Positions 1,990-64,000 of a DNA stretch of 64,000 nt are shown piece by piece (the stretch's first letter is position 1; each line of letters starts with the position of its first letter). The notes beneath the pieces are model-generated. The model had not been told where the DNA came from. It was given only the letters and a program-made list of their open reading frames with translations, and searched no databases. A program made the translations under genes and the position numbers. The DNA lies in contig CBDBGH010000003.1 in assembly GCA_965205265.1 (NCBI GenBank), forward strand, positions 4,288,001 to 4,352,000, given 5' to 3'. The stretch comes from Alphaproteobacteria bacterium (lineage in GTDB: Bacteria; Pseudomonadota; Alphaproteobacteria; Bin95).

Positions 1990-2293
1990 TAAACGCCACT
2001 CTGTCTGCCATGTCGACACTCCCAATAATGGTACGTAGGCGCACACCGACGCACCGCGCAAGAAACTGCCCTTGCGCTCGCACGACGAGTTTGGCTACCC
2101 ACCGTCCTTCAATCATGGCCGATTCAGAAGCCGATTGCAAACCACATGGAGAAATGGGTGACGTAAGAATTCCTGACTTCGACGGTTGGGCTGACTTCTG
2201 ACCGATCTCGCGTCTGGAGTTTTCAGTAAAGCCAATGAGTTGGCAGTTGCGGTGCGGTCAAGCTGCGTTGTAGTGCCTAGTAAATCTTTGAGA

Positions 2294-2328
2294 CTGTCAA
2301 TGCCTCCGCCACGCGCTACACTCCCCCC
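2294..2328 (+). promoter_or_regulatory. Putative transposase promoter, probably leaderless (same in every copy)
   Basis: CTGTCA-17 bp-TACACT, then 6 nt (CCCCCC) to the ATG; no SD. Confidence 0.5.
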
Positions 2329-3984
2329 ATGTTCGTGCGCATCAAGACCTCCCCCAACAGCCCGCGACGCTCGGTCCAGATCGTCGAGGCCGTGCGCGAC
2401 GGCGGCAAGGTCCGACAGCGCATCGTCCGCCATGTCGGCGTGGCCATGGACGAGGACGAGCTCGAGCGCCTGAGGCAGCTCGGCGAGTACGTCAAGGCGA
2501 AGCTGGAGGACGAGCGTCAGCCGGCATTGTTTGCGCCCGAGAAGATCGCTGAGCAGGCGATCCGTGTCGGCCGCCGGGGGGACGGCAAGGAGGAACTCCC
2601 GGTCGACCTCAAGCAGCTTGAAGAGGAGCAGCGCCTGATCACAGGCATCCACGAGGTCTATGGCGAGATCTACCGGCTGCTGGGCCTCGACGCGCTGCTG
2701 CCGCGCTCGCGCTACCGGGCCTCCCATGACGCGCTGTTCCATGTGGTGATGGCGCGGGTAGCCAACCCCGACAGCAAGCGGGGCAGCGTGCGCCGGCTCG
2801 AGGAGGACTTCGGCGTGAGTCTTCCGCTCGAGAAGGTCTACCGGATGATGGATCAGCTCGACGCGACGGTGATCGAGCGACTGCGCACGCGCGTCGGCGA
2901 GGCGAGCCGGTCGCTGCTGCCGGAGCCGGTCGCGATCCTCTTCTTCGATTGCACCACGCTCTACTTCGAGACGGCCGCCGAGGACGAGCTTCGCCAGCAC
3001 GGCTTCAGCAAGGACGGCAAACACAAGGACTCGCAGGTTCTGCTGGCGCTGATGGTGACGCGCGAAGGGCTGCCGATCAGCTACGAGGTCTTCCCCGGCG
3101 CCACCTACGAGGGACACAGCATGGTCCCGGTCCTGCAGGACATGCAGCGCCGCCACCAGGTGGAGCGCACGGTATGCGTGGCCGACCGGGGCATGCTGAG
3201 CGCCGACAACCTCGACGCCATGGACGCCATCGGCGGCGAGTATGTCGTCGGCGCGCGGCTGCGCAAGCTGCCGCTCGCGCTGCTGGGGCAGGTTCTCGAC
3301 CCCGGGACCTATGCCCCGCTGGAGGGCTCACAGGACCGCCGGGTCGGCGAGTGGGAGTACAAGGGCCGTCGCCTGATCGTCGTCTTCTGCCCCCAGCGCG
3401 CACGCAAGGACGCGCACGAGCGCCGCCATCAGGTGGAACGCCTGCTCGACAGGCTGGCCCGCAGCGACAATCCCAGGGAACTGCTCTCCAATCACGGGGC
3501 GAAGCGCTTCATCGCCGTCGAGGGCGACGCACGGCTCACGGTGAACCCGGAGAAGATCGCCGAGGCCGCACGATGGGACGGGCTCACCGGCGTCATCACC
3601 AATCTGCGCGACGCGCGCGTCACCGAAGTGATGGCTCACTACCAGGGGCTCTGGCAGGTCGAGGAGAGCTTCCGGATCACCAAACACGACCTGAAGATAC
3701 GTCCCATCTGGCACTGGAACCCGGACCGGATCCGCGCTCACATCGCCATCGCCTTCCTGGCCTTCGCCTGCGTTCGACACCTTGCGTACCGCGTCGCCAT
3801 CCAGAAGCGGCGGATGTCCCCGGAGGTCATCCGCTCCGCCCTCGTCCACCGCCAGTGCTCCCTGCTGCGCTGTCGGCAATCGGGCAACCGCTACGTCATC
3901 CCCTCGAAGCCGACACCGGCGGCGGAGCAGATTTACGCAACCATGGGGCTGCCCCTGACGATCACCCCGTATCAACTCGCCTGA
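2329..3984 (+). CDS. IS1634-family DDE transposase (551 aa)
   Basis: Motifs FFDCTTLYF, GFSKDGK, VADRGM, YQGLWQVEESFRITK and RIRAHIAIAF typical of IS1634/IS1549. Confidence 0.93.
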   Translation: MFVRIKTSPNSPRRSVQIVEAVRDGGKVRQRIVRHVGVAMDEDELERLRQLGEYVKAKLEDERQPALFAPEKIAEQAIRVGRRGDGKEELPVDLKQLEEEQRLITGIHEVYGEIYRLLGLDALLPRSRYRASHDALFHVVMARVANPDSKRGSVRRLEEDFGVSLPLEKVYRMMDQLDATVIERLRTRVGEASRSLLPEPVAILFFDCTTLYFETAAEDELRQHGFSKDGKHKDSQVLLALMVTREGLPISYEVFPGATYEGHSMVPVLQDMQRRHQVERTVCVADRGMLSADNLDAMDAIGGEYVVGARLRKLPLALLGQVLDPGTYAPLEGSQDRRVGEWEYKGRRLIVVFCPQRARKDAHERRHQVERLLDRLARSDNPRELLSNHGAKRFIAVEGDARLTVNPEKIAEAARWDGLTGVITNLRDARVTEVMAHYQGLWQVEESFRITKHDLKIRPIWHWNPDRIRAHIAIAFLAFACVRHLAYRVAIQKRRMSPEVIRSALVHRQCSLLRCRQSGNRYVIPSKPTPAAEQIYATMGLPLTITPYQLA

Positions 3985-4050
3985 CCGTCGACGAAGCACG
4001 GCTCGAAGAAATGCCGGATGTAGTGCCTAGCCGAAATGAGAACCAGGCAA

Positions 4051-4063
4051 TATCAACTACTTA
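4051..4063 (+). promoter_or_regulatory. IHF consensus site next to the IS right TIR (also in copies 2 and 3)
   Basis: TATCAACTACTTA matches WATCAANNNNTTR exactly. Confidence 0.6.
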
Positions 4064-5104
4064 TGCGAATCAACCGTCGAAGTCAGGACGCTGTTCACCT
4101 CCTTGAAGTCGCGTTGGTGGGCCAGATAGGCGTCGATCGCCCTGCTAGTATCCGGCGAGAACTGAATCGTCCCGAAGCCCGATGTCTGTCCTATCGCGTT
4201 GTAACGGATGCTCTCCTGGTCCGGGGCGATCGTGCCGGCGGGCAGTTGCAGCCGGTTGTATTGGCTGGAGCCGTGCACGTACAGGCTGGTGGTGCCGAGA
4301 TAGACGAGCGTGCTGTCGCGTGTGACCCGCTGGTTCTTCATCTGCGACGAGATGATGGACGGACTGGCATACCGGCGTCGGTAGTCGGCGCTGACCTGCG
4401 GGCTGAGCATCAGCAGCGCAACCAGCTTGCCCCCAAGTATTCGATTGTAGGGCGCGATCGCGCCGCAGGTGGTGATCTCGAGCAGATTGGCGCCGGCCCG
4501 CCGCCCCTTCAGCGCCTCCAGGACGATGTTGACCGCGCTTCTTACCTTGTCCTTTCCGAGCGCCGCAGGCGCGCGCTCTGGATCTGTCAGCTCTTGCCTG
4601 TGTTCGGCGATGACGAGCCGGGCCGACAGCAGACGCGACAATGCCGAAGCCCGCTTTCTGGCCACGAGTTGCTTCCGAGCGATGTGCATGCGCGCGTCGG
4701 CGGACGCCTTGGGCTCGAGCCTGAGGATGTCGTCATCGACCGGAGGCGCCGCCTCATCGTCCCAGAGATCGGCTTCGAACCGGTCCTTCTCTGACCCCGC
4801 AACCTCCTTGAGCAGGGTCTCGCGCAACTCCGAGAACTCCTGACCGCGCTGTACCAACCGACCGATAACCGCATGGTCGGGAGATTCAACTTCTTCCGCC
4901 GTGACCAGATTGGTCCACTCGATTTCCGCAAGCGACCTCTCAACCTGTCGCTCCAGCCATCCGACTTCCTCCTCAAGCGCCGCCTTGCCCCTCACGGCGG
5001 CACCGGTGAACCGTTCGACGATCGCCGCAAAATGCCAGCCGATGTATCGCTCGCGCCCCTCGCCCATTTCGAGGGGACAATTGTTGAGCGCAGCGATGCC
5101 GATG

Positions 5105-5289: not shown

Positions 5290-7205
5290 CCTGACTTCGA
5301 CGGTTGGGCTGACTTCTGACCGATCTCGCGTCTGGAGTTTTCAGTAAAGCCAATGAGTTGGCAGTTGCGGTGCGGTCAAGCTGCGTTGTAGTGCCTAGTA
5401 AATCTTTGAGACTGTCAATGCCTCCGCCACGCGCTACACTCCCCCCATGTTCGTGCGCATCAAGACCTCCCCCAACAGCCCGCGACGCTCGGTCCAGATC
5501 GTCGAGGCCGTGCGCGACGGCGGCAAGGTCCGACAGCGCATCGTCCGCCATGTCGGCGTGGCCATGGACGAGGACGAGCTCGAGCGCCTGAGGCAGCTCG
5601 GCGAGTACGTCAAGGCGAAGCTGGAGGACGAGCGTCAGCCGGCATTGTTTGCGCCCGAGAAGATCGCTGAGCAGGCGATCCGTGTCGGCCGCCGGGGGGA
5701 CGGCAAGGAGGAACTCCCGGTCGACCTCAAGCAGCTTGAAGAGGAGCAGCGCCTGATCACAGGCATCCACGAGGTCTATGGCGAGATCTACCGGCTGCTG
5801 GGCCTCGACGCGCTGCTGCCGCGCTCGCGCTACCGGGCCTCCCATGACGCGCTGTTCCATGTGGTGATGGCGCGGGTAGCCAACCCCGACAGCAAGCGGG
5901 GCAGCGTGCGCCGGCTCGAGGAGGACTTCGGCGTGAGTCTTCCGCTCGAGAAGGTCTACCGGATGATGGATCAGCTCGACGCGACGGTGATCGAGCGACT
6001 GCGCACGCGCGTCGGCGAGGCGAGCCGGTCGCTGCTGCCGGAGCCGGTCGCGATCCTCTTCTTCGATTGCACCACGCTCTACTTCGAGACGGCCGCCGAG
6101 GACGAGCTTCGCCAGCACGGCTTCAGCAAGGACGGCAAACACAAGGACTCGCAGGTTCTGCTGGCGCTGATGGTGACGCGCGAAGGGCTGCCGATCAGCT
6201 ACGAGGTCTTCCCCGGCGCCACCTACGAGGGACACAGCATGGTCCCGGTCCTGCAGGACATGCAGCGCCGCCACCAGGTGGAGCGCACGGTATGCGTGGC
6301 CGACCGGGGCATGCTGAGCGCCGACAACCTCGACGCCATGGACGCCATCGGCGGCGAGTATGTCGTCGGCGCGCGGCTGCGCAAGCTGCCGCTCGCGCTG
6401 CTGGGGCAGGTTCTCGACCCCGGGACCTATGCCCCGCTGGAGGGCTCACAGGACCGCCGGGTCGGCGAGTGGGAGTACAAGGGCCGTCGCCTGATCGTCG
6501 TCTTCTGCCCCCAGCGCGCACGCAAGGACGCGCACGAGCGCCGCCATCAGGTGGAACGCCTGCTCGACAGGCTGGCCCGCAGCGACAATCCCAGGGAACT
6601 GCTCTCCAATCACGGGGCGAAGCGCTTCATCGCCGTCGAGGGCGACGCACGGCTCACGGTGAACCCGGAGAAGATCGCCGAGGCCGCACGATGGGACGGG
6701 CTCACCGGCGTCATCACCAATCTGCGCGACGCGCGCGTCACCGAAGTGATGGCTCACTACCAGGGGCTCTGGCAGGTCGAGGAGAGCTTCCGGATCACCA
6801 AACACGACCTGAAGATACGTCCCATCTGGCACTGGAACCCGGACCGGATCCGCGCTCACATCGCCATCGCCTTCCTGGCCTTCGCCTGCGTTCGACACCT
6901 TGCGTACCGCGTCGCCATCCAGAAGCGGCGGATGTCCCCGGAGGTCATCCGCTCCGCCCTCGTCCACCGCCAGTGCTCCCTGCTGCGCTGTCGGCAATCG
7001 GGCAACCGCTACGTCATCCCCTCGAAGCCGACACCGGCGGCGGAGCAGATTTACGCAACCATGGGGCTGCCCCTGACGATCACCCCGTATCAACTCGCCT
7101 GACCGTCGACGAAGCACGGCTCGAAGAAATGCCGGATGTAGTGCCTAGCCGAAATGAGAACCAGGCAATATCAACTACTTATGCGAATCAACCGTCGAAG
7201 TCAGG
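5290..7205 (+). mobile_element. IS1634-family element, copy 2 (1916 bp)
   Basis: Same TIRs and identical transposase protein. Confidence 0.93.
5447..7102 (+). CDS. IS1634-family transposase
   Basis: Identical translation to 2329-3984. Confidence 0.93.
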   Translation: MFVRIKTSPNSPRRSVQIVEAVRDGGKVRQRIVRHVGVAMDEDELERLRQLGEYVKAKLEDERQPALFAPEKIAEQAIRVGRRGDGKEELPVDLKQLEEEQRLITGIHEVYGEIYRLLGLDALLPRSRYRASHDALFHVVMARVANPDSKRGSVRRLEEDFGVSLPLEKVYRMMDQLDATVIERLRTRVGEASRSLLPEPVAILFFDCTTLYFETAAEDELRQHGFSKDGKHKDSQVLLALMVTREGLPISYEVFPGATYEGHSMVPVLQDMQRRHQVERTVCVADRGMLSADNLDAMDAIGGEYVVGARLRKLPLALLGQVLDPGTYAPLEGSQDRRVGEWEYKGRRLIVVFCPQRARKDAHERRHQVERLLDRLARSDNPRELLSNHGAKRFIAVEGDARLTVNPEKIAEAARWDGLTGVITNLRDARVTEVMAHYQGLWQVEESFRITKHDLKIRPIWHWNPDRIRAHIAIAFLAFACVRHLAYRVAIQKRRMSPEVIRSALVHRQCSLLRCRQSGNRYVIPSKPTPAAEQIYATMGLPLTITPYQLA

Positions 7206-48614: not shown

Positions 48615-51600
48615 TCAGCTCGCTTTCGAGATCACGCCCGTGTTGACTTCTTCGAGCTTGTCGAAGATCCCCTCGATGACGTTCGATTTGTCGCTGAACA
48701 GTTCCTCCGGCCCGCCCCCGTGAATGCCGCTGAACGGCGCTTCGTAGAGGGCGGACGCCTCCATGATCCCCCTGGCGGTCAACTGGTCGATGACCATTTC
48801 GACGAAGCGGATCTGCGGCGGGTTCAGGCTGTGATCGTTCAGGAACTCCGAGAAGGCGGCCTGCGCGGCCGCGCGGTCGAGGCCCATCAGGGCGCGGACG
48901 AAGTGCGCCAGCGACGGCGCCTCGCTTCGGGCCAGCAGCCCCGTAAGCAGCGTCTTCCCATCCTCTTCGCCGACCTCGACGAGAGCCACCTCCAGCGCCG
49001 CCAGGTCGGCCTCGGTCAGGGGCTGGTTGGTCCGCAATTTGTGGATCACCAGGTGGTCCTTGTGGCTGTCCAGGTAGGTCCTCACCTTCCTCTCGTATTG
49101 GGCGCTGGTCATCTTCGGCATGGGGATCGGCTCGTCGTCCCTCACCCTCAGTATCTCGTCCTCGAAATCGGTGTAGACGATGGTCCGCTTCTTCCTGTCC
49201 AGCAACGGCACCAGCCCGCGCAGGCGCACCCGCAAGTCCTCAAGGCGGGCGAGGTTCATTCCCTCCCAGAACTCGAACTCCTGCATGGCGGCCAGATAAT
49301 CGAGTTGGGCCTTCACGGCCGGGATGGCGCTCTTCTCCTCCAGGAGCGATGCGATCTCGACCATCCGCTGCCGGCGCGTTTCGTAGGCGCCCTGATCTCC
49401 TTCCGCGAATGCGAGCTGCATGGTCAACGCCGTGAGATCGAACAATAGAGACTCGATTTCGTCCGTTTCGGTCCCGCTGGGCAGACCGGCGACGTTGCGC
49501 TGGAGGCGCTCGATGTCGTCCTCGCCGAGCCGGTTCCAGGCGCCGCGCTCCCGGTAGCGGTCCACATCCTCCAGATGCATTCGGACGATGAAGTTGTCGC
49601 GGTTCATTGCCGCGACCTCGCCGTGGAGCTCATCGGTCAGCGAGCTTGCAAGCCCGCCGCCCTCGTCCAGGTCCGGCGTTCTCTGCACACGGGCCAGCAA
49701 CTGAACGCGGGACCGGAACAGCCGCGTTCCCAGCGGAACGGCTTCTCCGCTCTCGATGCCATCCGGGTTTTCCCGGAAGAAGTCGAAGTTGAAACAGAAA
49801 TCGAAGATCCGGAAGTCCTGCTTGTCTTTGTCCGGCCCGAACAGTTCGGGACACAGCCGGGTGCCCCGGCCGATCATTTGCCAGAACTTGATCTTGGAAT
49901 AGACCGGCTTGAAGAAGACCAGGTTAGCGACTTCGGGAATGTCGATGCCCGTATCCAGCATATCCACCGAGATGGCGATGTGCGGCGCCTTGTCCTTTTG
50001 CGAGAAGTCGTCGATCAGGCTTTGGGGATACTTGGCGTAATGGTCGATGACGCGCGCGAAGTGCCCCCTGCAGTGAGGGTAGTGGTGATTGAACCGCTCC
50101 TCGATGAACTTTGCGTGCTCGTGGTTGCGGGCGAATATGATCGTCTTGGCGAGACGGTCGCCGCCGGCGACCGTATGTCCGTTCACCATCAGGTGTTGCA
50201 GCACCTTGTCGACGGTATCCTCGTTGAACAGCCAACTGTTGATTGCGGCGGCATTGACGCGGTCCGGTAACTCTCCTGGCTCCGCATCGTCCCCCCAATC
50301 GAGGCTTTCCCACTGCTCCTTTTCTTCGTCGCTGAGGGAATTGTAATCGATTCCTTCGCGAGGGAATTTCAGATCGACCTGTTGACCCCGAGGAGGGACC
50401 AGGAATCCGTCGGCCACCGCCGTTTCAAGTTCGTAGGCGTCCGTCGGCACGCCCGGCTCCAGGTCGAAGAGCTGGTAGGTATTCCGGTCCACCTGGTCGC
50501 GCGGCGTCGCGGTCAGCCCGACCAGCAGGGAATCGAAGTAGCGGAAGATCGTGCCGTACCTCCGGTAGACCGACCGGTGGGCCTCGTCGATGATCACCAG
50601 ATCGAAATGGCCGACGCCGAAACGCGCCTCGCCGCCTTTGGTCTCGTCGATCAACCCCATCATGGTCGGATAGGTGCTGACATAGACCCGGCCCTCGGTC
50701 TCCTTCTCGGTCACCAGGTTGACCGGGCTCGACTCCGGCAGGTGGGTCTTGAAGGCGTTGACGGCCTGATTGACCAGGGACACCCGGTCGGCCAGGAACA
50801 ATGCCCGCTTGATCCAGCCTGCCCGCTGAAGGAGGTCCACCAGCGCGATGGCCGTCCGCGTCTTGCCGGTGCCGGTGGCCATCACCAGCAGCGCCTTGCG
50901 CCGCGACTTGGCGAACTGGTCTCCGATGCTGGCGATGGCCCGCTTCTGGTAGTAGCGCTCGACGATGGCATCCTTCACCTGGGCGACATCGAGCGGCTGT
51001 CGCTGTTCGCGGCGGTGGATGAGGGTTGTGAGTTCGTCCTTCTTGTAGAAGCCGGCGGCGGCCCGGGGCGGGTAGGCAAGGTCGTCCCACAGAAACGTCT
51101 TGTAGCCGTTGGTGTAGAAGATGACCGGCCGTTGGCCGTGCATGGCTTCCAGGCAGTCGGCGTAGAGCTTCGCCTGCTGCTGGCCCGCCTCCGGTGCGAT
51201 TGTGGTCCTTTTCGCTTCCACCACGGCCAGCGGCTTGCCGTCGTCGCCCCAGAGAACATAGTCCGCATAGCCGACGCCTTTCTCGTTCGGCATGCCGGTG
51301 ACTTCGTACTCCCGGTCTTGGGGCCGGTCCAAGGCCCACCCGGCCCGCTGCAAGTCGAGGTCGATAAGCCGCTCGCGGGTCTCGGCCTCGTTCCAGTCGT
51401 GGGTCTCGGGGACCGTGTCGTTTTCGGCCTTGATCGCGGCGAGCTTCTCGCGGAGCGCTTCCAGCTCGCCCTCGGCTTCCTTCCTGTCTTCCTCCGCCGC
51501 GTCCCGCTCGGCCTCCAGCGCTTCGATGGCCGCGGGCTTGGCCACGGGCTCCCCCTTGGGAACCAGCGACTCGTCGTATGTCCTGCCCTGGAGTTCCTCC

Positions 51601-51992
51601 GCCCCCTTGCGCAGGTACGTGCGGCCCGCCCAGTAGGCGACGTGGAACAGCTCGCGCAGGACGGCGAGGGCGGTCTCGGGCGTCGGCGTCTTGTTGCCGT
51701 GCACGGCCACGTTGCCCGCACGCCGGATATACTCGGCCTTTTGCCATACGGCCTCGGGCGCCAGCGCTTGGAACGCCGGCTCATGAAGGTAGGCGTCCAG
51801 GTTGGTGGTCTGCGGCGGGCTCAGGGCCTTGTCGACTTTGTAGATGCGTTTCAGCAGCCGCTCCAACGCAAGCCGGGCGTGGAAGCAGGACGCCCGCGGA
51901 TCGCCATGGACGTGACGCTCCGCGTAGCTTGCGCTCTCCGCCACATGCACGAATTCCTGCTCCAGGAACGCGAAGTTGGCGGAGGTCTCCAT
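48615..51992 (-). CDS. hsdR: Type I RM endonuclease subunit (EcoAI/EcoEI-like) with DUF4145 N-terminus; full-length ORF
   Basis: ADYVL..VVEAK, QA..YA, MATGTGKT, DEAH, LTATP, QMIGRGTR. Confidence 0.93.
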   Translation of the reverse strand: METSANFAFLEQEFVHVAESASYAERHVHGDPRASCFHARLALERLLKRIYKVDKALSPPQTTNLDAYLHEPAFQALAPEAVWQKAEYIRRAGNVAVHGNKTPTPETALAVLRELFHVAYWAGRTYLRKGAEELQGRTYDESLVPKGEPVAKPAAIEALEAERDAAEEDRKEAEGELEALREKLAAIKAENDTVPETHDWNEAETRERLIDLDLQRAGWALDRPQDREYEVTGMPNEKGVGYADYVLWGDDGKPLAVVEAKRTTIAPEAGQQQAKLYADCLEAMHGQRPVIFYTNGYKTFLWDDLAYPPRAAAGFYKKDELTTLIHRREQRQPLDVAQVKDAIVERYYQKRAIASIGDQFAKSRRKALLVMATGTGKTRTAIALVDLLQRAGWIKRALFLADRVSLVNQAVNAFKTHLPESSPVNLVTEKETEGRVYVSTYPTMMGLIDETKGGEARFGVGHFDLVIIDEAHRSVYRRYGTIFRYFDSLLVGLTATPRDQVDRNTYQLFDLEPGVPTDAYELETAVADGFLVPPRGQQVDLKFPREGIDYNSLSDEEKEQWESLDWGDDAEPGELPDRVNAAAINSWLFNEDTVDKVLQHLMVNGHTVAGGDRLAKTIIFARNHEHAKFIEERFNHHYPHCRGHFARVIDHYAKYPQSLIDDFSQKDKAPHIAISVDMLDTGIDIPEVANLVFFKPVYSKIKFWQMIGRGTRLCPELFGPDKDKQDFRIFDFCFNFDFFRENPDGIESGEAVPLGTRLFRSRVQLLARVQRTPDLDEGGGLASSLTDELHGEVAAMNRDNFIVRMHLEDVDRYRERGAWNRLGEDDIERLQRNVAGLPSGTETDEIESLLFDLTALTMQLAFAEGDQGAYETRRQRMVEIASLLEEKSAIPAVKAQLDYLAAMQEFEFWEGMNLARLEDLRVRLRGLVPLLDRKKRTIVYTDFEDEILRVRDDEPIPMPKMTSAQYERKVRTYLDSHKDHLVIHKLRTNQPLTEADLAALEVALVEVGEEDGKTLLTGLLARSEAPSLAHFVRALMGLDRAAAQAAFSEFLNDHSLNPPQIRFVEMVIDQLTARGIMEASALYEAPFSGIHGGGPEELFSDKSNVIEGIFDKLEEVNTGVISKAS

Positions 51993-51993
51993 T
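51466..51993. repeat. 528-bp target-site duplication, left copy (partner 53910-54437)
   Basis: tcgccctcggc...ggtctccatt abuts both ends of IS copy 3; identical translations. Confidence 0.93.
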
Positions 51994-53909
51994 CCTGACT
52001 TCGACGGTTGGGCTGACTTCTGACCGATCTCGCGTCTGGAGTTTTCAGTAAAGCCAATGAGTTGGCAGTTGCGGTGCGGTCAAGCTGCGTTGTAGTGCCT
52101 AGTAAATCTTTGAGACTGTCAATGCCTCCGCCACGCGCTACACTCCCCCCATGTTCGTGCGCATCAAGACCTCCCCCAACAGCCCGCGACGCTCGGTCCA
52201 GATCGTCGAGGCCGTGCGCGACGGCGGCAAGGTCCGACAGCGCATCGTCCGCCATGTCGGCGTGGCCATGGACGAGGACGAGCTCGAGCGCCTGAGGCAG
52301 CTCGGCGAGTACGTCAAGGCGAAGCTGGAGGACGAGCGTCAGCCGGCATTGTTTGCGCCCGAGAAGATCGCTGAGCAGGCGATCCGTGTCGGCCGCCGGG
52401 GGGACGGCAAGGAGGAACTCCCGGTCGACCTCAAGCAGCTTGAAGAGGAGCAGCGCCTGATCACAGGCATCCACGAGGTCTATGGCGAGATCTACCGGCT
52501 GCTGGGCCTCGACGCGCTGCTGCCGCGCTCGCGCTACCGGGCCTCCCATGACGCGCTGTTCCATGTGGTGATGGCGCGGGTAGCCAACCCCGACAGCAAG
52601 CGGGGCAGCGTGCGCCGGCTCGAGGAGGACTTCGGCGTGAGTCTTCCGCTCGAGAAGGTCTACCGGATGATGGATCAGCTCGACGCGACGGTGATCGAGC
52701 GACTGCGCACGCGCGTCGGCGAGGCGAGCCGGTCGCTGCTGCCGGAGCCGGTCGCGATCCTCTTCTTCGATTGCACCACGCTCTACTTCGAGACGGCCGC
52801 CGAGGACGAGCTTCGCCAGCACGGCTTCAGCAAGGACGGCAAACACAAGGACTCGCAGGTTCTGCTGGCGCTGATGGTGACGCGCGAAGGGCTGCCGATC
52901 AGCTACGAGGTCTTCCCCGGCGCCACCTACGAGGGACACAGCATGGTCCCGGTCCTGCAGGACATGCAGCGCCGCCACCAGGTGGAGCGCACGGTATGCG
53001 TGGCCGACCGGGGCATGCTGAGCGCCGACAACCTCGACGCCATGGACGCCATCGGCGGCGAGTATGTCGTCGGCGCGCGGCTGCGCAAGCTGCCGCTCGC
53101 GCTGCTGGGGCAGGTTCTCGACCCCGGGACCTATGCCCCGCTGGAGGGCTCACAGGACCGCCGGGTCGGCGAGTGGGAGTACAAGGGCCGTCGCCTGATC
53201 GTCGTCTTCTGCCCCCAGCGCGCACGCAAGGACGCGCACGAGCGCCGCCATCAGGTGGAACGCCTGCTCGACAGGCTGGCCCGCAGCGACAATCCCAGGG
53301 AACTGCTCTCCAATCACGGGGCGAAGCGCTTCATCGCCGTCGAGGGCGACGCACGGCTCACGGTGAACCCGGAGAAGATCGCCGAGGCCGCACGATGGGA
53401 CGGGCTCACCGGCGTCATCACCAATCTGCGCGACGCGCGCGTCACCGAAGTGATGGCTCACTACCAGGGGCTCTGGCAGGTCGAGGAGAGCTTCCGGATC
53501 ACCAAACACGACCTGAAGATACGTCCCATCTGGCACTGGAACCCGGACCGGATCCGCGCTCACATCGCCATCGCCTTCCTGGCCTTCGCCTGCGTTCGAC
53601 ACCTTGCGTACCGCGTCGCCATCCAGAAGCGGCGGATGTCCCCGGAGGTCATCCGCTCCGCCCTCGTCCACCGCCAGTGCTCCCTGCTGCGCTGTCGGCA
53701 ATCGGGCAACCGCTACGTCATCCCCTCGAAGCCGACACCGGCGGCGGAGCAGATTTACGCAACCATGGGGCTGCCCCTGACGATCACCCCGTATCAACTC
53801 GCCTGACCGTCGACGAAGCACGGCTCGAAGAAATGCCGGATGTAGTGCCTAGCCGAAATGAGAACCAGGCAATATCAACTACTTATGCGAATCAACCGTC
53901 GAAGTCAGG
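51994..53909 (+). mobile_element. IS1634-family element, copy 3 (1916 bp)
   Basis: Same TIRs and transposase. Confidence 0.93.
52151..53806 (+). CDS. IS1634-family transposase
   Basis: Identical translation to the other copies. Confidence 0.93.
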   Translation: MFVRIKTSPNSPRRSVQIVEAVRDGGKVRQRIVRHVGVAMDEDELERLRQLGEYVKAKLEDERQPALFAPEKIAEQAIRVGRRGDGKEELPVDLKQLEEEQRLITGIHEVYGEIYRLLGLDALLPRSRYRASHDALFHVVMARVANPDSKRGSVRRLEEDFGVSLPLEKVYRMMDQLDATVIERLRTRVGEASRSLLPEPVAILFFDCTTLYFETAAEDELRQHGFSKDGKHKDSQVLLALMVTREGLPISYEVFPGATYEGHSMVPVLQDMQRRHQVERTVCVADRGMLSADNLDAMDAIGGEYVVGARLRKLPLALLGQVLDPGTYAPLEGSQDRRVGEWEYKGRRLIVVFCPQRARKDAHERRHQVERLLDRLARSDNPRELLSNHGAKRFIAVEGDARLTVNPEKIAEAARWDGLTGVITNLRDARVTEVMAHYQGLWQVEESFRITKHDLKIRPIWHWNPDRIRAHIAIAFLAFACVRHLAYRVAIQKRRMSPEVIRSALVHRQCSLLRCRQSGNRYVIPSKPTPAAEQIYATMGLPLTITPYQLA

Positions 53910-54436
53910 TCGCCCTCGGCTTCCTTCCTGTCTTCCTCCGCCGCGTCCCGCTCGGCCTCCAGCGCTTCGATGGCCGCGGGCTTGGCCACGGGCTCCCCCT
54001 TGGGAACCAGCGACTCGTCGTATGTCCTGCCCTGGAGTTCCTCCGCCCCCTTGCGCAGGTACGTGCGGCCCGCCCAGTAGGCGACGTGGAACAGCTCGCG
54101 CAGGACGGCGAGGGCGGTCTCGGGCGTCGGCGTCTTGTTGCCGTGCACGGCCACGTTGCCCGCACGCCGGATATACTCGGCCTTTTGCCATACGGCCTCG
54201 GGCGCCAGCGCTTGGAACGCCGGCTCATGAAGGTAGGCGTCCAGGTTGGTGGTCTGCGGCGGGCTCAGGGCCTTGTCGACTTTGTAGATGCGTTTCAGCA
54301 GCCGCTCCAACGCAAGCCGGGCGTGGAAGCAGGACGCCCGCGGATCGCCATGGACGTGACGCTCCGCGTAGCTTGCGCTCTCCGCCACATGCACGAATTC
54401 CTGCTCCAGGAACGCGAAGTTGGCGGAGGTCTCCAT
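53879..54436 (-). pseudogene. Duplicated hsdR 5' fragment: 175 aa DUF4145-like domain plus IS-derived tail
   Basis: Same N-terminus as 48615-51992; ends DLTSTVDSHK from the IS right end. Confidence 0.88.
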
Positions 54437-54437
54437 T
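53910..54437. repeat. 528-bp target-site duplication, right copy
   Basis: Matches 51466-51993. Confidence 0.93.
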
Positions 54438-54440
54438 TAG

Positions 54441-55616
54441 CTAGAGTTCCCCTTTGAAGGCGCGTGATTGCAGGGAGGCGAAGAGGGTATCGAGTTCATC
54501 CAAGTGTGCGCGCTGCTTGGCTTTTTGCCGTTCAACGGATTCGACGATGGTGGCGAAGCGGCGTTGGAGATCGATGGGTGGCTTCAGAACGAAAATTTTC
54601 TGCATCGCCTTCGCATCAAATCTGCGCGTACCATGAGCGGCGCTTGAAACCTCAGATAGTATTTGTCTCTTAAGCTGGCCTACGCACTCCAGTAAGAAAT
54701 CGACTCGATAGGCATCTGATGGATAAATTGCCTTCATGTCCTGGTTAACGGCAACCGGAACCCGGTTAATTGCCGCTGGGAACGAATGTGCGAGGATCAT
54801 CCCCCGCACCACGATCAATAGGTGGCCAGATGGCAAGAGCTTGAGATTTGTCTCCTCAAACACCGAATCGCTCACATAGTCTTGAGAGCCATAGATCTGA
54901 GAAACCTTCATGTCCTTAGGGCTAACCCAAGGAGTGGTGCCAACCCAATAATCTTCTCGCGCCTTGCTGGGAGTGGCGCCGCTTATAAACTCGCCAATGT
55001 CCACGAATTTTACAGTATCCCACCCCATTGAATTTTTGACGGGATCACCGAACATGTCGAGGAATGTCGATTGGAGGAGGGTGTCGAGTTGCGCGAGGGA
55101 CTCGCGGCGTTTAGCCCGCAGGTCGTCTGCCGCGTCCAGGATCGCCGCAATCCGCTTTTGCTCCTCAAGCGGCGGGAGGGGTAATTGGAGTTTCCTAAAA
55201 CTTGAAATATTGAAACTCGATTGGTTCACTGAATGCTTCGTAATTCGGGGTAACTGCCTCCGAAAACTAGGTGATGACAACATTCTGTATGCGTACCGGG
55301 AATCCACCTCAGCCTGATCAGCCCTAAGCACCAGGAGATTCATCCCGTGAACAAGATCCGTCGGCTCTCCCTCATAGATAGCGCACTTTCCCAAGTGTTT
55401 TGTGCTGTTGATATGGCTGATGAGGATGTCTCCAGGCTGGAGGAGCCAGTCACTGCAATCCGTCTTCGCCAAGCCCGCAAACCCAACTTTGTCAGGGTCG
55501 ATGGTGCCGTCTGCGATTGTCTCGATGCGAGTAATCGGTAGACCGCCAGCACCAGAAGATTGCCGAACTGACTTTCCGTTCCGAAGTAGAACTGCGATTT
55601 CAGAGACAGAGTTCAT
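54441..55616 (-). CDS. hsdS: Type I RM specificity subunit
   Basis: Two TRDs; PLPPLEEQKRIA, FLDMFGDP, PPIDLQRRFA; visibly lower GC. Confidence 0.93.
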   Translation of the reverse strand: MNSVSEIAVLLRNGKSVRQSSGAGGLPITRIETIADGTIDPDKVGFAGLAKTDCSDWLLQPGDILISHINSTKHLGKCAIYEGEPTDLVHGMNLLVLRADQAEVDSRYAYRMLSSPSFRRQLPRITKHSVNQSSFNISSFRKLQLPLPPLEEQKRIAAILDAADDLRAKRRESLAQLDTLLQSTFLDMFGDPVKNSMGWDTVKFVDIGEFISGATPSKAREDYWVGTTPWVSPKDMKVSQIYGSQDYVSDSVFEETNLKLLPSGHLLIVVRGMILAHSFPAAINRVPVAVNQDMKAIYPSDAYRVDFLLECVGQLKRQILSEVSSAAHGTRRFDAKAMQKIFVLKPPIDLQRRFATIVESVERQKAKQRAHLDELDTLFASLQSRAFKGEL

Positions 55617-56852
55617 GTTGTCAACATCTCCTCCAACTCCGCACGTCCCTTTGTGATTTCGTCCTCTAGCTCCGCTAGACGACCCAAGATTTCCTCCGGC
55701 GGGTCATACTCCACTGCTTCATACTCGATCTCCTTGTATCGGTTGATCGAGAGGTCGTAGTCGTTGTCAGCGATTTCATCTTTGGGCACGAGAAAACTCT
55801 GATCGGTCCGCTTGCGTTCAGCCTCGTTATTGCGGCCCCGCCAACGGGTGAGGATGTCGGCTAGATCGCTCTTGTCGGGCTCAGGCGTGCGCTTGTCGTC
55901 GAGCGAATATCCATCCGCCTGCATGTCGTAGAACCAGACGTTGTCCGTCCCCCCGGAGTTGGTCTTGGTGAACAGCAGGATGGCCGTGGAGACGCCCGCG
56001 TAGGGTTTGAACACGCCCGACGGCATGGAGATCACCGCATCGAGTTTCTGGTCCTCGACCAGAATCCTGCACAGGGCCTTGTGCGCCTTGCTCGATCCGA
56101 ACAGCACCCCGTCCGGCACGATGACGGCGGCGCGCCCGCCGGTCTGGAGCAACCGCAGGAAAAGAGCGAGGAACAGCAGTTCGGTCTTCTTGGTCTTGAC
56201 GGCCCGTTGCAAATCCTTGGCGGTCGACTCGTAGTCGAGACTGCCGGCGAAGGGCGGATTGGCGAGAACCAGGGAATACTTCTCCGCGTCGTCGTCATCT
56301 GCCTCGGCCAGCGAGTCCCGGTAGCGGATATCCGGGTTTTCCACCCCGTGCAGCAGCATGTTCATGCTGCCGATGCGCAGCATGGTGCTGTCGAAGTCGT
56401 AGCCGTGGAACGTATGATCGTTAAAGCGCCTGCGGGCACCCTCGTCCTTGTAAATGGTGTCGCTGTGGTTTTCGACGAGGTGCTCCGAGGCGGCGATCAG
56501 GAAGCCTGCCGTGCCGCAGGCCGGATCGCAGATCACGTCCTTGGGCGTGGGCGCGGTCATGTCGACCATCAGCTTGATGATGTGGCGCGGGGTTCGAAAT
56601 TGCCCGTTCTGTCCCGCCGTGGCGATCTTGCCCAGCATGTATTCGTAGAGATCGCCCTTGGTGTCCCTGTCGGCCATGTCGATGCCGTCCAACTGATCGA
56701 CTGCGCGTTTCAGTAAGTCCCGGCCGGTGATTACGGAAAGTCCCGGCCGGCGATTCCGGAAAGTCCCGGCCGGCATGACCGGGGCGATTTGAGTTCGGCT
56801 TTCGGGTGCGCCGACTCGGCGTCTACCCCCTGGCATTTTGCCGGGGGGTGGC

Positions 56853-58406
56853 ATGCCGGGACGGAAGCAGACGAGACGAACGACAGTGAAGGACGTCAGG
56901 GCGATCCTGCGGCTGAGCCATGGGCAGGGTCTGTCGGAGCGCGAGGTCGCGGGGCGGCTGAAGCTCTCCAGGGCGACGGTGTCGACCTATCTTCTTCGGG
57001 CCCGGGAGGCGGGCCTGTCGAGCTGGCCGCTGCCGGCGGTCTACGAGGACGACGCGGTGCTGGAACAGTTGCTGTTCCGGCGCATGGGCCGCCCGCCGCG
57101 GGATACGCGCCAGCCGCACTGGCCGACGGTGGCGGCCGAGCTGAAGCGCAAGGGCGTGACGCTGAGCCTGCTGTGGCAGGAATACCGGGCCGCGCATCCG
57201 GACGGCTACGGCTATACCTGGTTCTGCGACGCCTTCAGGGCCTTCGAGCGCCGCACGCATGCGAGCTGGCGCAACCGGCACGAGGCCGGCGCGGTGATGC
57301 AGACCGACTATGCCGGCCAGACGGTCGAGATCGTCGATCCCGAGACCGGCGAGATCCACGAGGCGCAGATCTTCGTCGCGGTGCTCGGCGCCTCGTCCTA
57401 CACCTTCGCGACCGCGAGCCTGACGCAGCGCCTGCCGGACTGGATCGCTGGGCAATGCGAAGCGCTGGCCTTCTTTGGGGGCGTGCCGAAAAGCATTGTC
57501 TGCGACAACCTGAAGGCGGGGGTGGCGAAGCCGCTCTGGTTCGAGCCGACGCTGAACGCGACCTTCGCGGCGCTGGCGGAGCACTACGACACCACCGTCC
57601 TGCCGACGCGGCCCCGAAAACCCCGGGACAAGGCGAAGGTCGAGGTTGGCGTGCAAGTGGTCGAGCGCTGGATCCTGGCCCGCCTCAGGAACCGGCGCTT
57701 CTTCTCCCTCGGGCAGCTCAACGCGGCGATCCGCGTCCTCCTGGACGAACTCAACGACCGGCCCATGCGCCATCTCGGCCAGAGCCGGCGCCAGATGTTC
57801 GAGGCCATCGAGCGCGCCGCGCTGGCGCCGCTGCCGAAGACCCCCTTCGAATACGCCGAGTGGAAGACCGCGAAGGTCCACCCCGACTACCATGTCGATG
57901 TCGAGCGCACCTTCTACTCGGTCCCTCACAGCCTGATCGGGCGCACGGTTCGGATCCGCCTCACCCGGCGCACGGTCGAGGTCTTCCATAGCCACAGGCG
58001 CGTCGCCGCCCATGCACGCCGGTCTCCCTATGGCGGGCATGTCACCGTTGCCGCTCATATGCCCAGCGCGCATCGCCGCTATGCCGATCGCACCCCGGCA
58101 AGCCTGATCGGCAGGGCAAGACGCATCGGCCCCAACACGGCCGTGCTGGTCGAGCGCATGATGCGCGACAGGCCGCATCCCGAGCAGGGCTATCGAAGCG
58201 CCATGGGCGTCATATCGCTCTCCCGGCGATACGAGGCCGAAAGGGTCGAGGCCGCCTGCGAGCGCGCGCTCACCATCAATGCGCTCAGCTACTCCTCGCT
58301 CACCGCCATCCTCCGGTCCGGCCTCGACCGCGCCGCGCCCGAGCGTGAGCCCCTCCTGCCCCTGCCGGCGCACGACAACATCCGCGGCCCCGCCTACTAC
58401 CGATGA
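56853..58406 (+). CDS. istA: IS21 transposase
   Basis: N-terminal HTH, QTDYAG, IVCDNLK, KAKVE. Confidence 0.93.
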
Positions 58407-58420
58407 ACGAAGGACTTCCC

Positions 58421-59197
58421 ATGCTGACACATCCGACCCTCGACCAGATGCACGCCCTTGGCCTCAAGGGTATGGCCGAAGCCTGGCGCGACATGGCCGA
58501 AAAGGGCCAGGCATCCGAACTCGACCGCGAGGAATGGCTCGCCCTCATGCTCGACCGCGAAGCCGCAACACGCGCCGACAGGCGGCTCACCAACCGCCTC
58601 CGGCTGGCCAGGCTGCGCTTCCCCGAGGCCTGCATCGAGGATATCGACTTCGATCCCGCCCGCGGCCTCGATCGCCGCAATATCCTCTCCCTCGCCCAGG
58701 GCGAATGGCTCAAGACCCACGACAATCTGATCCTGGTCGGCCAGACCGGTACCGGAAAGACCTGGCTCGCATGCGCCTTCGGACATCAGGCCGCAAGGCT
58801 CGACCGCTCTGTCCTCTATGTCCGCATGCCCCGTCTCTTCGAGGACCTCGCCATGGCCCGCCTCGACGGAAGGCTCCCCAGGCTCATCGACAAGCTCGCA
58901 AGGGTCCAGCTCCTCATCCTCGACGACTGGGGTACACACGGCCTCGCCGACCGCCAGAGGCTCGATCTCCTCGAAATCTGCGAAGAACGATACCGTCGGC
59001 GGTCCACCCTCATCACCGCACAGCTCCCCGTCGCCAAATGGCACGACCTCATCGGCGAAGCCACCGTCGCTGACGCCATCCTCGACCGGATCGTCCACAA
59101 CGCCCACCGCATCGACCTGAAAGGCGAAAGCATGCGAAGGAAAAACGCCAGGCCCGACTTGACCCCGGCCGCCGCCGCGGAAGACAATCCCGGCTGA
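58421..59197 (+). CDS. istB: IS21 helper ATPase
   Basis: [20 protein letters not shown]. Confidence 0.93.
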
Positions 59198-59829
59198 CCA
59201 AAACCAGGCGCCCGGAGCCACGCTCAAGGCCGGCCGCGACTTAATGAAATCCGCGGCCGGGACTTAGTGAAATACCCGGCCGGAATCACTGAAATCCGCA
59301 GATCGACCACGTTGGCGAGTACCCGGGCCGTGGGCATCATGAACAGCGCGTCCTTCATGTGATGGGTGTAGGTCGAGCCGCCCTCGCCGCCCGCTTCCCC
59401 ATTGCCGCCGAGGGACTTGATGAACGGGAACACCCCGTCCCGGACCGTCTCGAACATTCGCTCCGGCGCGGTCTCCTTGAAGCGGGACCAGCGGAGATGT
59501 TCCTGACCGGGCGAAAAGATGGGCTCCTCGATGGGCGTCTTCGTCCGGTTTGCCTTGGCCTCTTTCAGGGTATGCAGTTCGTCCAGGCGCTTGATGAACA
59601 ACAGGTAGGTAAGCTGCTCGATGACCGAGAGCGGATTGGAGATGCCGCCCGACCACATGGTGTCCCATATGCGGTCGACCTTCGACCTGAGTTCCCCGGT
59701 GATCATCGTTCGTTACCTTCCTTAGTTTCTTTGATTCAAGATACCTCAAATCCGGCGAAGCGTACCGCGCCGCCTGCCGCCTTCAGCGCCCTCTGCGGGC
59801 ACCCTTAGCCGATCGAAGGAGATCTCTCT

Positions 59830-63146: not shown

Positions 63147-64000
63147 CCTGACTTCGACGGTTGGGCTGACTTCTGACCGATCTCGCGTCTGGAGTTTTCA
63201 GTAAAGCCAATGAGTTGGCAGTTGCGGTGCGGTCAAGCTGCGTTGTAGTGCCTAGTAAATCTTTGAGACTGTCAATGCCTCCGCCACGCGCTACACTCCC
63301 CCCATGTTCGTGCGCATCAAGACCTCCCCCAACAGCCCGCGACGCTCGGTCCAGATCGTCGAGGCCGTGCGCGACGGCGGCAAGGTCCGACAGCGCATCG
63401 TCCGCCATGTCGGCGTGGCCATGGACGAGGACGAGCTCGAGCGCCTGAGGCAGCTCGGCGAGTACGTCAAGGCGAAGCTGGAGGACGAGCGTCAGCCGGC
63501 ATTGTTTGCGCCCGAGAAGATCGCTGAGCAGGCGATCCGTGTCGGCCGCCGGGGGGACGGCAAGGAGGAACTCCCGGTCGACCTCAAGCAGCTTGAAGAG
63601 GAGCAGCGCCTGATCACAGGCATCCACGAGGTCTATGGCGAGATCTACCGGCTGCTGGGCCTCGACGCGCTGCTGCCGCGCTCGCGCTACCGGGCCTCCC
63701 ATGACGCGCTGTTCCATGTGGTGATGGCGCGGGTAGCCAACCCCGACAGCAAGCGGGGCAGCGTGCGCCGGCTCGAGGAGGACTTCGGCGTGAGTCTTCC
63801 GCTCGAGAAGGTCTACCGGATGATGGATCAGCTCGACGCGACGGTGATCGAGCGACTGCGCACGCGCGTCGGCGAGGCGAGCCGGTCGCTGCTGCCGGAG
63901 CCGGTCGCGATCCTCTTCTTCGATTGCACCACGCTCTACTTCGAGACGGCCGCCGAGGACGAGCTTCGCCAGCACGGCTTCAGCAAGGACGGCAAACACA
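63147..64000 (+). mobile_element. IS1634-family element, copy 4 (cut by the window edge; transposase starts at 63304)
   Basis: Same left TIR and 5' transposase sequence. Confidence 0.93.

Follow-up and report, generated by a model that had tools for sequence, protein, structure and literature searches.

How can an insertion sequence (IS) enter the coding part of a gene and leave a complete copy of that gene behind? The question is raised by hsdR, part of an hsdM-hsdS-hsdR operon for type I restriction-modification on the minus strand of a 64,000-nucleotide stretch of DNA from an Alphaproteobacteria bacterium (assembly GCA_965205265.1). This stretch, called the window below, corresponds to C3:4288001-4352000 (C3 being contig CBDBGH010000003.1) of a genome of 3 contigs with no N; coordinates are window positions unless preceded by C3. 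Between hsdS and the complete hsdR lies a 1916-bp element of the IS1634 family, bordered on either side by the same 528 bp, and it can be held with high confidence that this repeat is the target-site duplication left by transposition of the element into hsdR, within codons 1-176. The insertion is real, and typical of the element, a new member of the IS1634 family whose target duplications are very long and variable.

The repeat was delimited by base-by-base extension. Its two copies, 51466-51993 and 53910-54437, are identical over 528 bp with zero mismatches and an offset of 2444, and just beyond it the identity is that of chance (12/50 and 13/50 nt at the two ends). On the minus strand it runs from 1 nt upstream of the hsdR ATG (51992) to the second nucleotide of codon 176, with codon 175 the last complete one, as the initial annotation had read it (from 1 nt before the ATG to codon 176), and the figure of 2444 bp given there is the sum of the element (1916 bp) and the repeat (528 bp). 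The element itself (51994-53909, plus strand) has its boundaries set by the repeat; the repeats abut its termini to the base, and no second IS lies outside them. The two IS ends are joined to the target 528 nt apart and the intervening stretch is found on both sides: the first copy supplies the intact hsdR with its 5' end and with 1 nt upstream of its ATG, and the second is still joined to hsdS. The complete 1125-aa open reading frame (ORF) that had been claimed beyond the IS, and the 185-aa N-domain ORF beside hsdS, are both present. The full-length hsdR (48615-51992, minus strand) encodes an N-terminal DUF4145 module (residues 25-113 by Pfam), nuclease and helicase domains and EcoEI_R_C, and residues 4-1100 of its product match positions 7-1087 of 1107 in the PADLOC profile of the type I R-subunit (REase_I, PDLC03047) with 584 bits. 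The stub (53879-54436, minus strand), taken from the ORF list and Pfam, consists of HsdR residues 1-175, DUF4145 included, and a 10-residue tail contributed by the right end of the IS.

The element starts and ends with a perfect 17-bp inverted repeat, CCTGACTTCGACGGTTG, the left one at 51994-52010 (plus strand; the same end is conserved in related loci of other genomes) and its perfect complement at 53893-53909 (minus strand). The transposase gene (52151-53806, plus strand) encodes a DDE-type protein of 551 aa, which reaches 341.3 bits on NCBIfam NF033559 (cutoff 100), with residues 28-542 on profile positions 1-482 of 483, and which carries Pfam DDE_Tnp_1 at residues 205-478 (54 bits). The IS1634 family has been described, in the part of a 2008 review that deals with it, as having a length of 1500-2000 bp and terminal inverted repeats starting C-----YT (PMC2266710); the present element, with 1916 bp, ends CCTGACTT... 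and perfect 17-bp inverted repeats, agrees with this in both length and ends. Annotated plasmid-borne transposases of the family are at most 31% identical to it. Most IS1634-family members have a variant catalytic signature, the R of the YREK motif being absent. Among solved structures no sequence match to the transposase was obtained at E up to 1, and no miniature inverted-repeat (MITE) derivatives of the element were found in the source genome.

Support for a target-site duplication comes from the other copies of the element. By BLAST the genome contains 55 full-length copies, all on the chromosome (53 at 100% and 2 at 99.95% identity), together with 14 partial matches, and contigs C1 and C2 carry no copy. 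With the IS ends fixed, exact direct repeats of 6-573 bp (median 136) flank 48/55 copies, their lengths being 6, 8, 11, 14, 33 ... 454, 455, 466, 528, 567, 568 and 573 bp. Long variable repeats had been named in the initial annotation as an established trait of the IS1634 family, with the provision that short repeats at the other copies would speak against it; the genome-wide catalogue bears the trait out, and the other copies do not have only short ones. The related opinion that 528 bp stands at or above the longest known duplication has to be qualified, since it exceeds the published 514 bp but is the fourth longest in this genome, where three copies exceed it, and relatives reach ~1.3 kb. 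Seven of the 55 copies have no flanking repeat; four of them are explained by an exchange of flanks between copies, which yields three more duplications of 76, 100 and 172 bp, and three are still unexplained.

Further evidence is given by the sequence at the repeat boundaries, which were oriented outward from the repeat and pooled, 48 copies giving 96 boundaries. The last repeated base (-1) is T in 74/96; the first base outside (+1) is C in 63 and G in 26, that is, C or G in 89/96; and the second base outside (+2) is T in 42 and A in 27 (T or A in 69/96). The motif is mirror-symmetric, reading outward from the repeat ...T, boundary, (C/G)(T/A)..., and consequently each IS 3' end is joined to an A after G or C on the attacked strand. 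At the hsdR copy, the ATG-side boundary fits it in an ordinary manner, with rank 38/96 from the bottom. A motif at the outer limits of the repeats is not what an assembler's mistake would produce, and this is the principal argument for regarding the duplications as biological and against an assembly artefact. In the portions of the IS1634-family literature examined, no statement was found on a target motif for such repeat ends.

The same pattern has been observed in other genomes. A protein-guided scan of species-representative genomes gave 79 related loci, some in metagenome-assembled genomes (MAGs) labelled Alphaproteobacteria, with transposases 87-99% identical, and others in Poriferihabitaceae, Pseudohongiella, Pseudomonadales, Paracoccaceae, Chloroflexota and Bacteroidales, with 44-59% identity. 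The same kind of terminal inverted repeats (CCTGACTTCGACGG or CCCGACTTCGACAG) occurs in 70/79 loci, and the conserved end CCTGACTTCGACGG is shared across several phyla, by copies in MAGs that are marine or sponge-associated. When an end shift of up to 2 nt is allowed, 47 of these 70 loci have exact flanking repeats of 16-1320 bp; with strictly fixed ends, both canonical ends are found in 50/79 loci, and 29 of the 50 have repeats of 16-1309 bp. Exact repeats of ~1307 and ~1320 bp surround the related copies L027 (CAXXVO010000008.1) and L047 (CBDEUP010000006.1), and no further IS was found in the flanks of the five longest related repeats (685-1320 bp). The motif recurs as well, with T at -1 in 41/58 and C or G at +1 in 44/58 boundaries (fixed ends). 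The collection thus comprises 51 duplications in the source genome and 47 in relatives, from 6 to ~1320 bp.

Several observations weigh against this account, or at least against its application to hsdR. The codon-176 boundary of the hsdR copy fits the motif poorly, being the 5th lowest of 96. In addition, 23/70 related loci have no flanking repeat, and two single copies in genomes of the same genus (89% and 85% DNA identity) have no flanking repeat of at least 4 bp within 1.4 kb. As regards the read data, all runs are available as contigs assembled at k=31, and a graph of this kind merges the copies of a 528-bp repeat that borders an element present 55 times. Runs X1, X2 and X4 each contain a contig in which 51465 passes directly into 53910, as in a locus lacking the IS, and the repeat/IS junctions of this copy are not spanned by any listed contig of X1, X2, X4 or X8. 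Because such graphs collapse the repeat, the joined contigs are evidence neither for nor against the insertion in the source strain; what they show is that an uninterrupted sequence path exists. Positions 51585-51858 are without contig cover because the contigs were placed on the second copy of the repeat. Finally, the sequential strand-transfer model set out below is something that we infer, and exponential and lognormal fits to the repeat lengths are not distinguished.

The alternative that best survives these points accepts the insertion as real and recent, with empty-site cells, either ancestral or reverted by recombination of the 528-bp repeats, coexisting in the population or present in close strains. 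It would account for the joined form in three runs from three studies, and the IS-to-flank depth ratios of ~53, ~27 and ~5 in X1, X2 and X4 (one depth figure per contig) suggest strains of different IS load sharing an identical hsd locus. The burst of the element is moreover recent, as the repeats and 53/55 IS copies are 100% identical. The joined contigs may nevertheless be a simplification of the graph only, and they do not give the proportion of one form to the other, so that a mixed population is a possibility to be kept in mind, which we consider less probable than its absence. When an empty site was sought in species representatives, the hsd locus itself was not found at the DNA level in the 40 relatives searched.

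A second alternative concerns not the origin of the duplication but its consequences, namely that the insertion was adaptive, creating a functional stand-alone DUF4145 protein and placing hsdR under an outward promoter borne by the IS. Its evaluation depends on the state of the operon. The hsdS gene (54441-55616, minus strand, 391 aa; Pfam Methylase_S, PADLOC Specificity_I) has its stop codon 4 nt before the native hsdR ATG (54436). The hsdM gene is found in two parts, both on the minus strand: a 3' part (55613-56701; Pfam N6_Mtase), matched by PADLOC MTase_I only at positions 122-490 of 491, and a 5' part (59301-59706) with the HsdM_N domain (Pfam, 61.7 bits). Between them lies an IS21-family element (56702-59300, plus strand; Pfam rve, Mu-transpos_C_2 and IstB_IS21), whose ends were taken from its other genomic copies and which contains istA (56838-58406) and istB (58403-59197). 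It is flanked by a 7-bp target duplication, GATCGAC, at 56695-56701 and 59301-59307, and has 23-nt terminal repeats at 56708-56776; two full copies and a partial one exist elsewhere on the chromosome. The listed hsdM ORF (55613-56854) begins inside this element, and the 160-aa ORF with HsdM_N (59224-59706) runs on into its end. The gene is split at about codon 135, and removal of the element in silico restores an ORF of 495 aa. Thus, the hsdR and hsdS ORFs are complete and hsdM is split by a 2.6-kb IS21-family element, which falls short of the intact hsdM, hsdS and hsdR of a type I system. A type I enzyme requires the methylase core, and the intact hsdR ORF is therefore probably functionless at present and likely lacks a working partner. 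In the same way, since hsdM was already split by the IS21-family element, the IS1634-family insertion is probably neutral in its consequence at this locus. In comparison with type I systems having an N-terminal DUF4145 in HsdR (PRK11448, PDLC03047), the gene order hsdM-hsdS-hsdR and the full-length match to the HsdR profile are the same, whereas here hsdM is split by IS21 and hsdR is parted from hsdS by the IS1634-family element.

In favour of an adaptive effect, the stub ends near the natural end of the N-terminal module (DUF4145 at residues 25-113, PRK11448 match at residues 3-177), and clusters of DUF4145 proteins of 171-184 aa exist in the atlas, where 28/30 matches share the family with scores of 0.93-0.94. 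The natural-looking size of the stub, close to that of stand-alone DUF4145 proteins, may accordingly serve as a lead. As to expression, the intact hsdR starts 1 nt past the IS terminus and its upstream sequence is now the IS end. The sequence ...GAAGTCAGGA-ATG and the TTGACA that faces outward on the minus strand of the left end (52122-52117), on which the idea of a rewired hsdR was based, are indeed present, but the TTGACA has no acceptable -10. A promoter scan of 51800-54700 on both strands found no sigma-70-like site, and it also missed the promoter of the transposase itself, so its sensitivity in this organism may be low. Within the IS end, the AGGA is unlikely to be a Shine-Dalgarno site, because it lies only 1 nt from the ATG. 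Furthermore, the transposase gene is directed away from hsdR, the IS21 element separates the operon promoter from hsdS and hsdR by 2.6 kb of antisense sequence, and HsdS and HsdR remain without the methylase core. An adaptive reading of the hsdR locus is thus unlikely.

Still less probable is an assembly artefact, in which the IS and a second 528-bp copy would have been misplaced in a genome with an uninterrupted hsdS-hsdR junction. The joined contigs of X1, X2 and X4, with none containing a repeat/IS junction of this copy, and the boundary of poor fit would agree with it, but a joined k=31 de Bruijn contig is expected either way, and the chromosome is a 5.46-Mb contig with no N in which 55 near-identical 1.9-kb copies are resolved. 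The same architecture, with sequence-specific outer boundaries, is moreover shared by 48/55 copies and recurs in independent assemblies of other genomes, which makes this explanation very improbable. The weakest proposal, a duplication independent of transposition (a tandem duplication or an unequal IS-IS exchange, with the IS merely at the junction), can be practically dismissed, since, in spite of the IS-IS recombination seen in this genome as flanks exchanged between copies, the repeats begin exactly where the IS ends, with no second IS outside, and the same geometry exists at 48 sites with a shared boundary motif.

Returning to the target-site duplication, it has to be placed among the known members of the family. 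IS1634 was reportedly described from Mycoplasma mycoides subsp. mycoides SC by Vilei, Nicolet and Frey in 1999, and IS1549 is said to have been described from Mycobacterium smegmatis by Plikaytis, Crawford and Shinnick in 1998. Members of the family usually generate duplications of 5-6 bp, and IS1549 and IS1634 'long, variable-length' repeats of 8-514 bp, according to the family section of the 2008 review, which adds that no mechanistic model had been put forward (PMC2266710). In the further literature searched, nothing was found on mechanism. The present element resembles IS1634 and IS1549 in transposase family, in size class and in its long direct repeats of variable length; it differs in probably belonging to another lineage, in repeats of up to 573 bp here and ~1.3 kb in relatives, beyond the range given in that section, and in having a target motif defined at both repeat ends. 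With the short-duplication members, such as ISGka5 of Geobacillus kaustophilus, for which the part of the report consulted gives a 6-bp duplication (PMC8024623), it shares the family, a DDE transposase and terminal inverted repeats, whereas their duplications are short and fixed. Two plasmid-borne copies of the family were analysed: one, on a Sulfitobacter plasmid and with a transposase ~28% identical, has a repeat of only 4-7 bp, and the other has one of 3 bp. As long variable repeats have already been published for IS1634 and IS1549, the hsdR case is an ordinary product of a known trait.

How such a duplication could arise may be outlined from the general chemistry of DDE transposases. Each 3' end of the element would attack one target strand, the two points of attack being offset here by a 5' stagger of 528 nt, and the stretch between them would be copied by repair or by strand-displacement synthesis; the hsdS side would so keep its native junction and the 185-aa stub, and the other side would receive a complete hsdR behind the IS end. 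Each IS end would choose its site independently at the same short motif, 5'-(G/C)^A on the attacked strand. As a speculative working model, two uncoupled single-end strand transfers with displacement synthesis between them can be envisaged, which would give a constant polarity (always a duplication), a broad distribution of lengths and no helical phasing. The repeat lengths fit an exponential distribution (Kolmogorov-Smirnov p of 0.53 for the 51 duplications here and 0.46 for the 47 in relatives), and a lognormal one equally well; no 10.5-bp helical phasing was detected in them (R = 0.014), nor significant clustering. This distribution speaks against a rigid or looped target complex and agrees with a process of constant hazard, in which, as may be conjectured, the second strand transfer would occur during displacement synthesis from the first nick. 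That the IS lineage with ends CCTGACTTCGACGG acts in this way, through uncoupled single-end transfers at 5'-(G/C)^A and displacement synthesis, and is thereby a natural segmental duplicator of up to 1.3 kb, is put forward tentatively, as a rather doubtful proposal.

The copies of the element also bear traces of later rearrangement. The flanking repeats (100 and 172 bp) of those at C3:4892940-4894855 and C3:5202993-5204908 are swapped between the two, which is the signature of rearrangement by reciprocal exchange between two IS copies. Similarly, 76 bp in the right flank of the repeatless copy at 2172-4087 of the window (C3:4290172-4292087) recur in the left flank of the one at C3:2317705, suggesting recombination between IS copies ~2 Mb apart. 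At C3:4596309-4600231 one copy of the IS has entered another, producing a 91-bp duplication, and different elements interrupt five further copies, where the overlaps amount to 6-13 bp in IS coordinates; active IS elements abound throughout the genome. The cumulative guanine-cytosine skew follows a weak, irregular course whose minimum falls at ~4.30 Mb (inside or beside the window) and whose maximum falls at ~5.44 Mb, which fits a much-rearranged chromosome.

The effect of the duplications on genes was estimated with a home-made gene caller on the IS-free chromosome, which predicted 4236 genes and 77.6% coding sequence, with imprecise start positions. By these crude calls, 27 of the 48 duplications are intergenic, 8 disrupt a gene and 13 span a gene end leaving an intact ORF, 8 of the latter at the 5' end (hsdR included) and 5 at the 3' end. 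If the same lengths are placed at random, 30.8 would disrupt a gene (never fewer than 22 in 400 rounds) and 7.6 would fall between genes. The suggestion that this mode of transposition can avoid gene knockout is structurally supported by the 13/48 intact ORFs and by the 8/48 disruptions against 30.8 expected; the depletion may reflect either selection or target choice. Of the 96 repeat ends, 4 lie no more than 5 nt from a predicted start (0.84 expected) and 5 equally near a predicted stop (0.83 expected); with a looser definition of the start, 8/96 compare with 2.7-3.5 expected. The coincidence of repeat ends with gene starts, as the hsdR case had led to ask, is therefore seen as a slight excess, but the enrichment is marginal and no rule can be drawn from it. 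As individual examples, a 466-bp duplication within C3:810300-814200 copies the whole 143-aa fxsA gene (ORFs 553-984 and 2935-3366 of that stretch), and a 205-bp duplication begins 2 nt upstream of the start codon, an ATG, of an IS21 istA-like gene. Within the window, the copies at 5290-7205 and 63147-64000 have duplications of 185 and 134 bp, both disrupting a predicted gene according to the same calls.

The wider value of the locus lies in the catalogue to which it leads: a shared motif, always duplication and never deletion, no phasing and a strong depletion of gene-disrupting insertions. Together these features limit, in concrete ways open to testing, the routes by which some DDE transposases may produce target duplications of such length. 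They also show that elements of this kind are able to duplicate domains and the ends of genes as well as entire small genes. If the proposed mode of transposition is true, the ~100 catalogued duplications would be the first quantitative constraints on a mechanism left unmodelled in the family section of the 2008 review (PMC2266710), and the lineage could insert at gene ends without knockouts, copy small genes (fxsA) or domains (the DUF4145 stub) and tolerate dozens of copies in a single genome.

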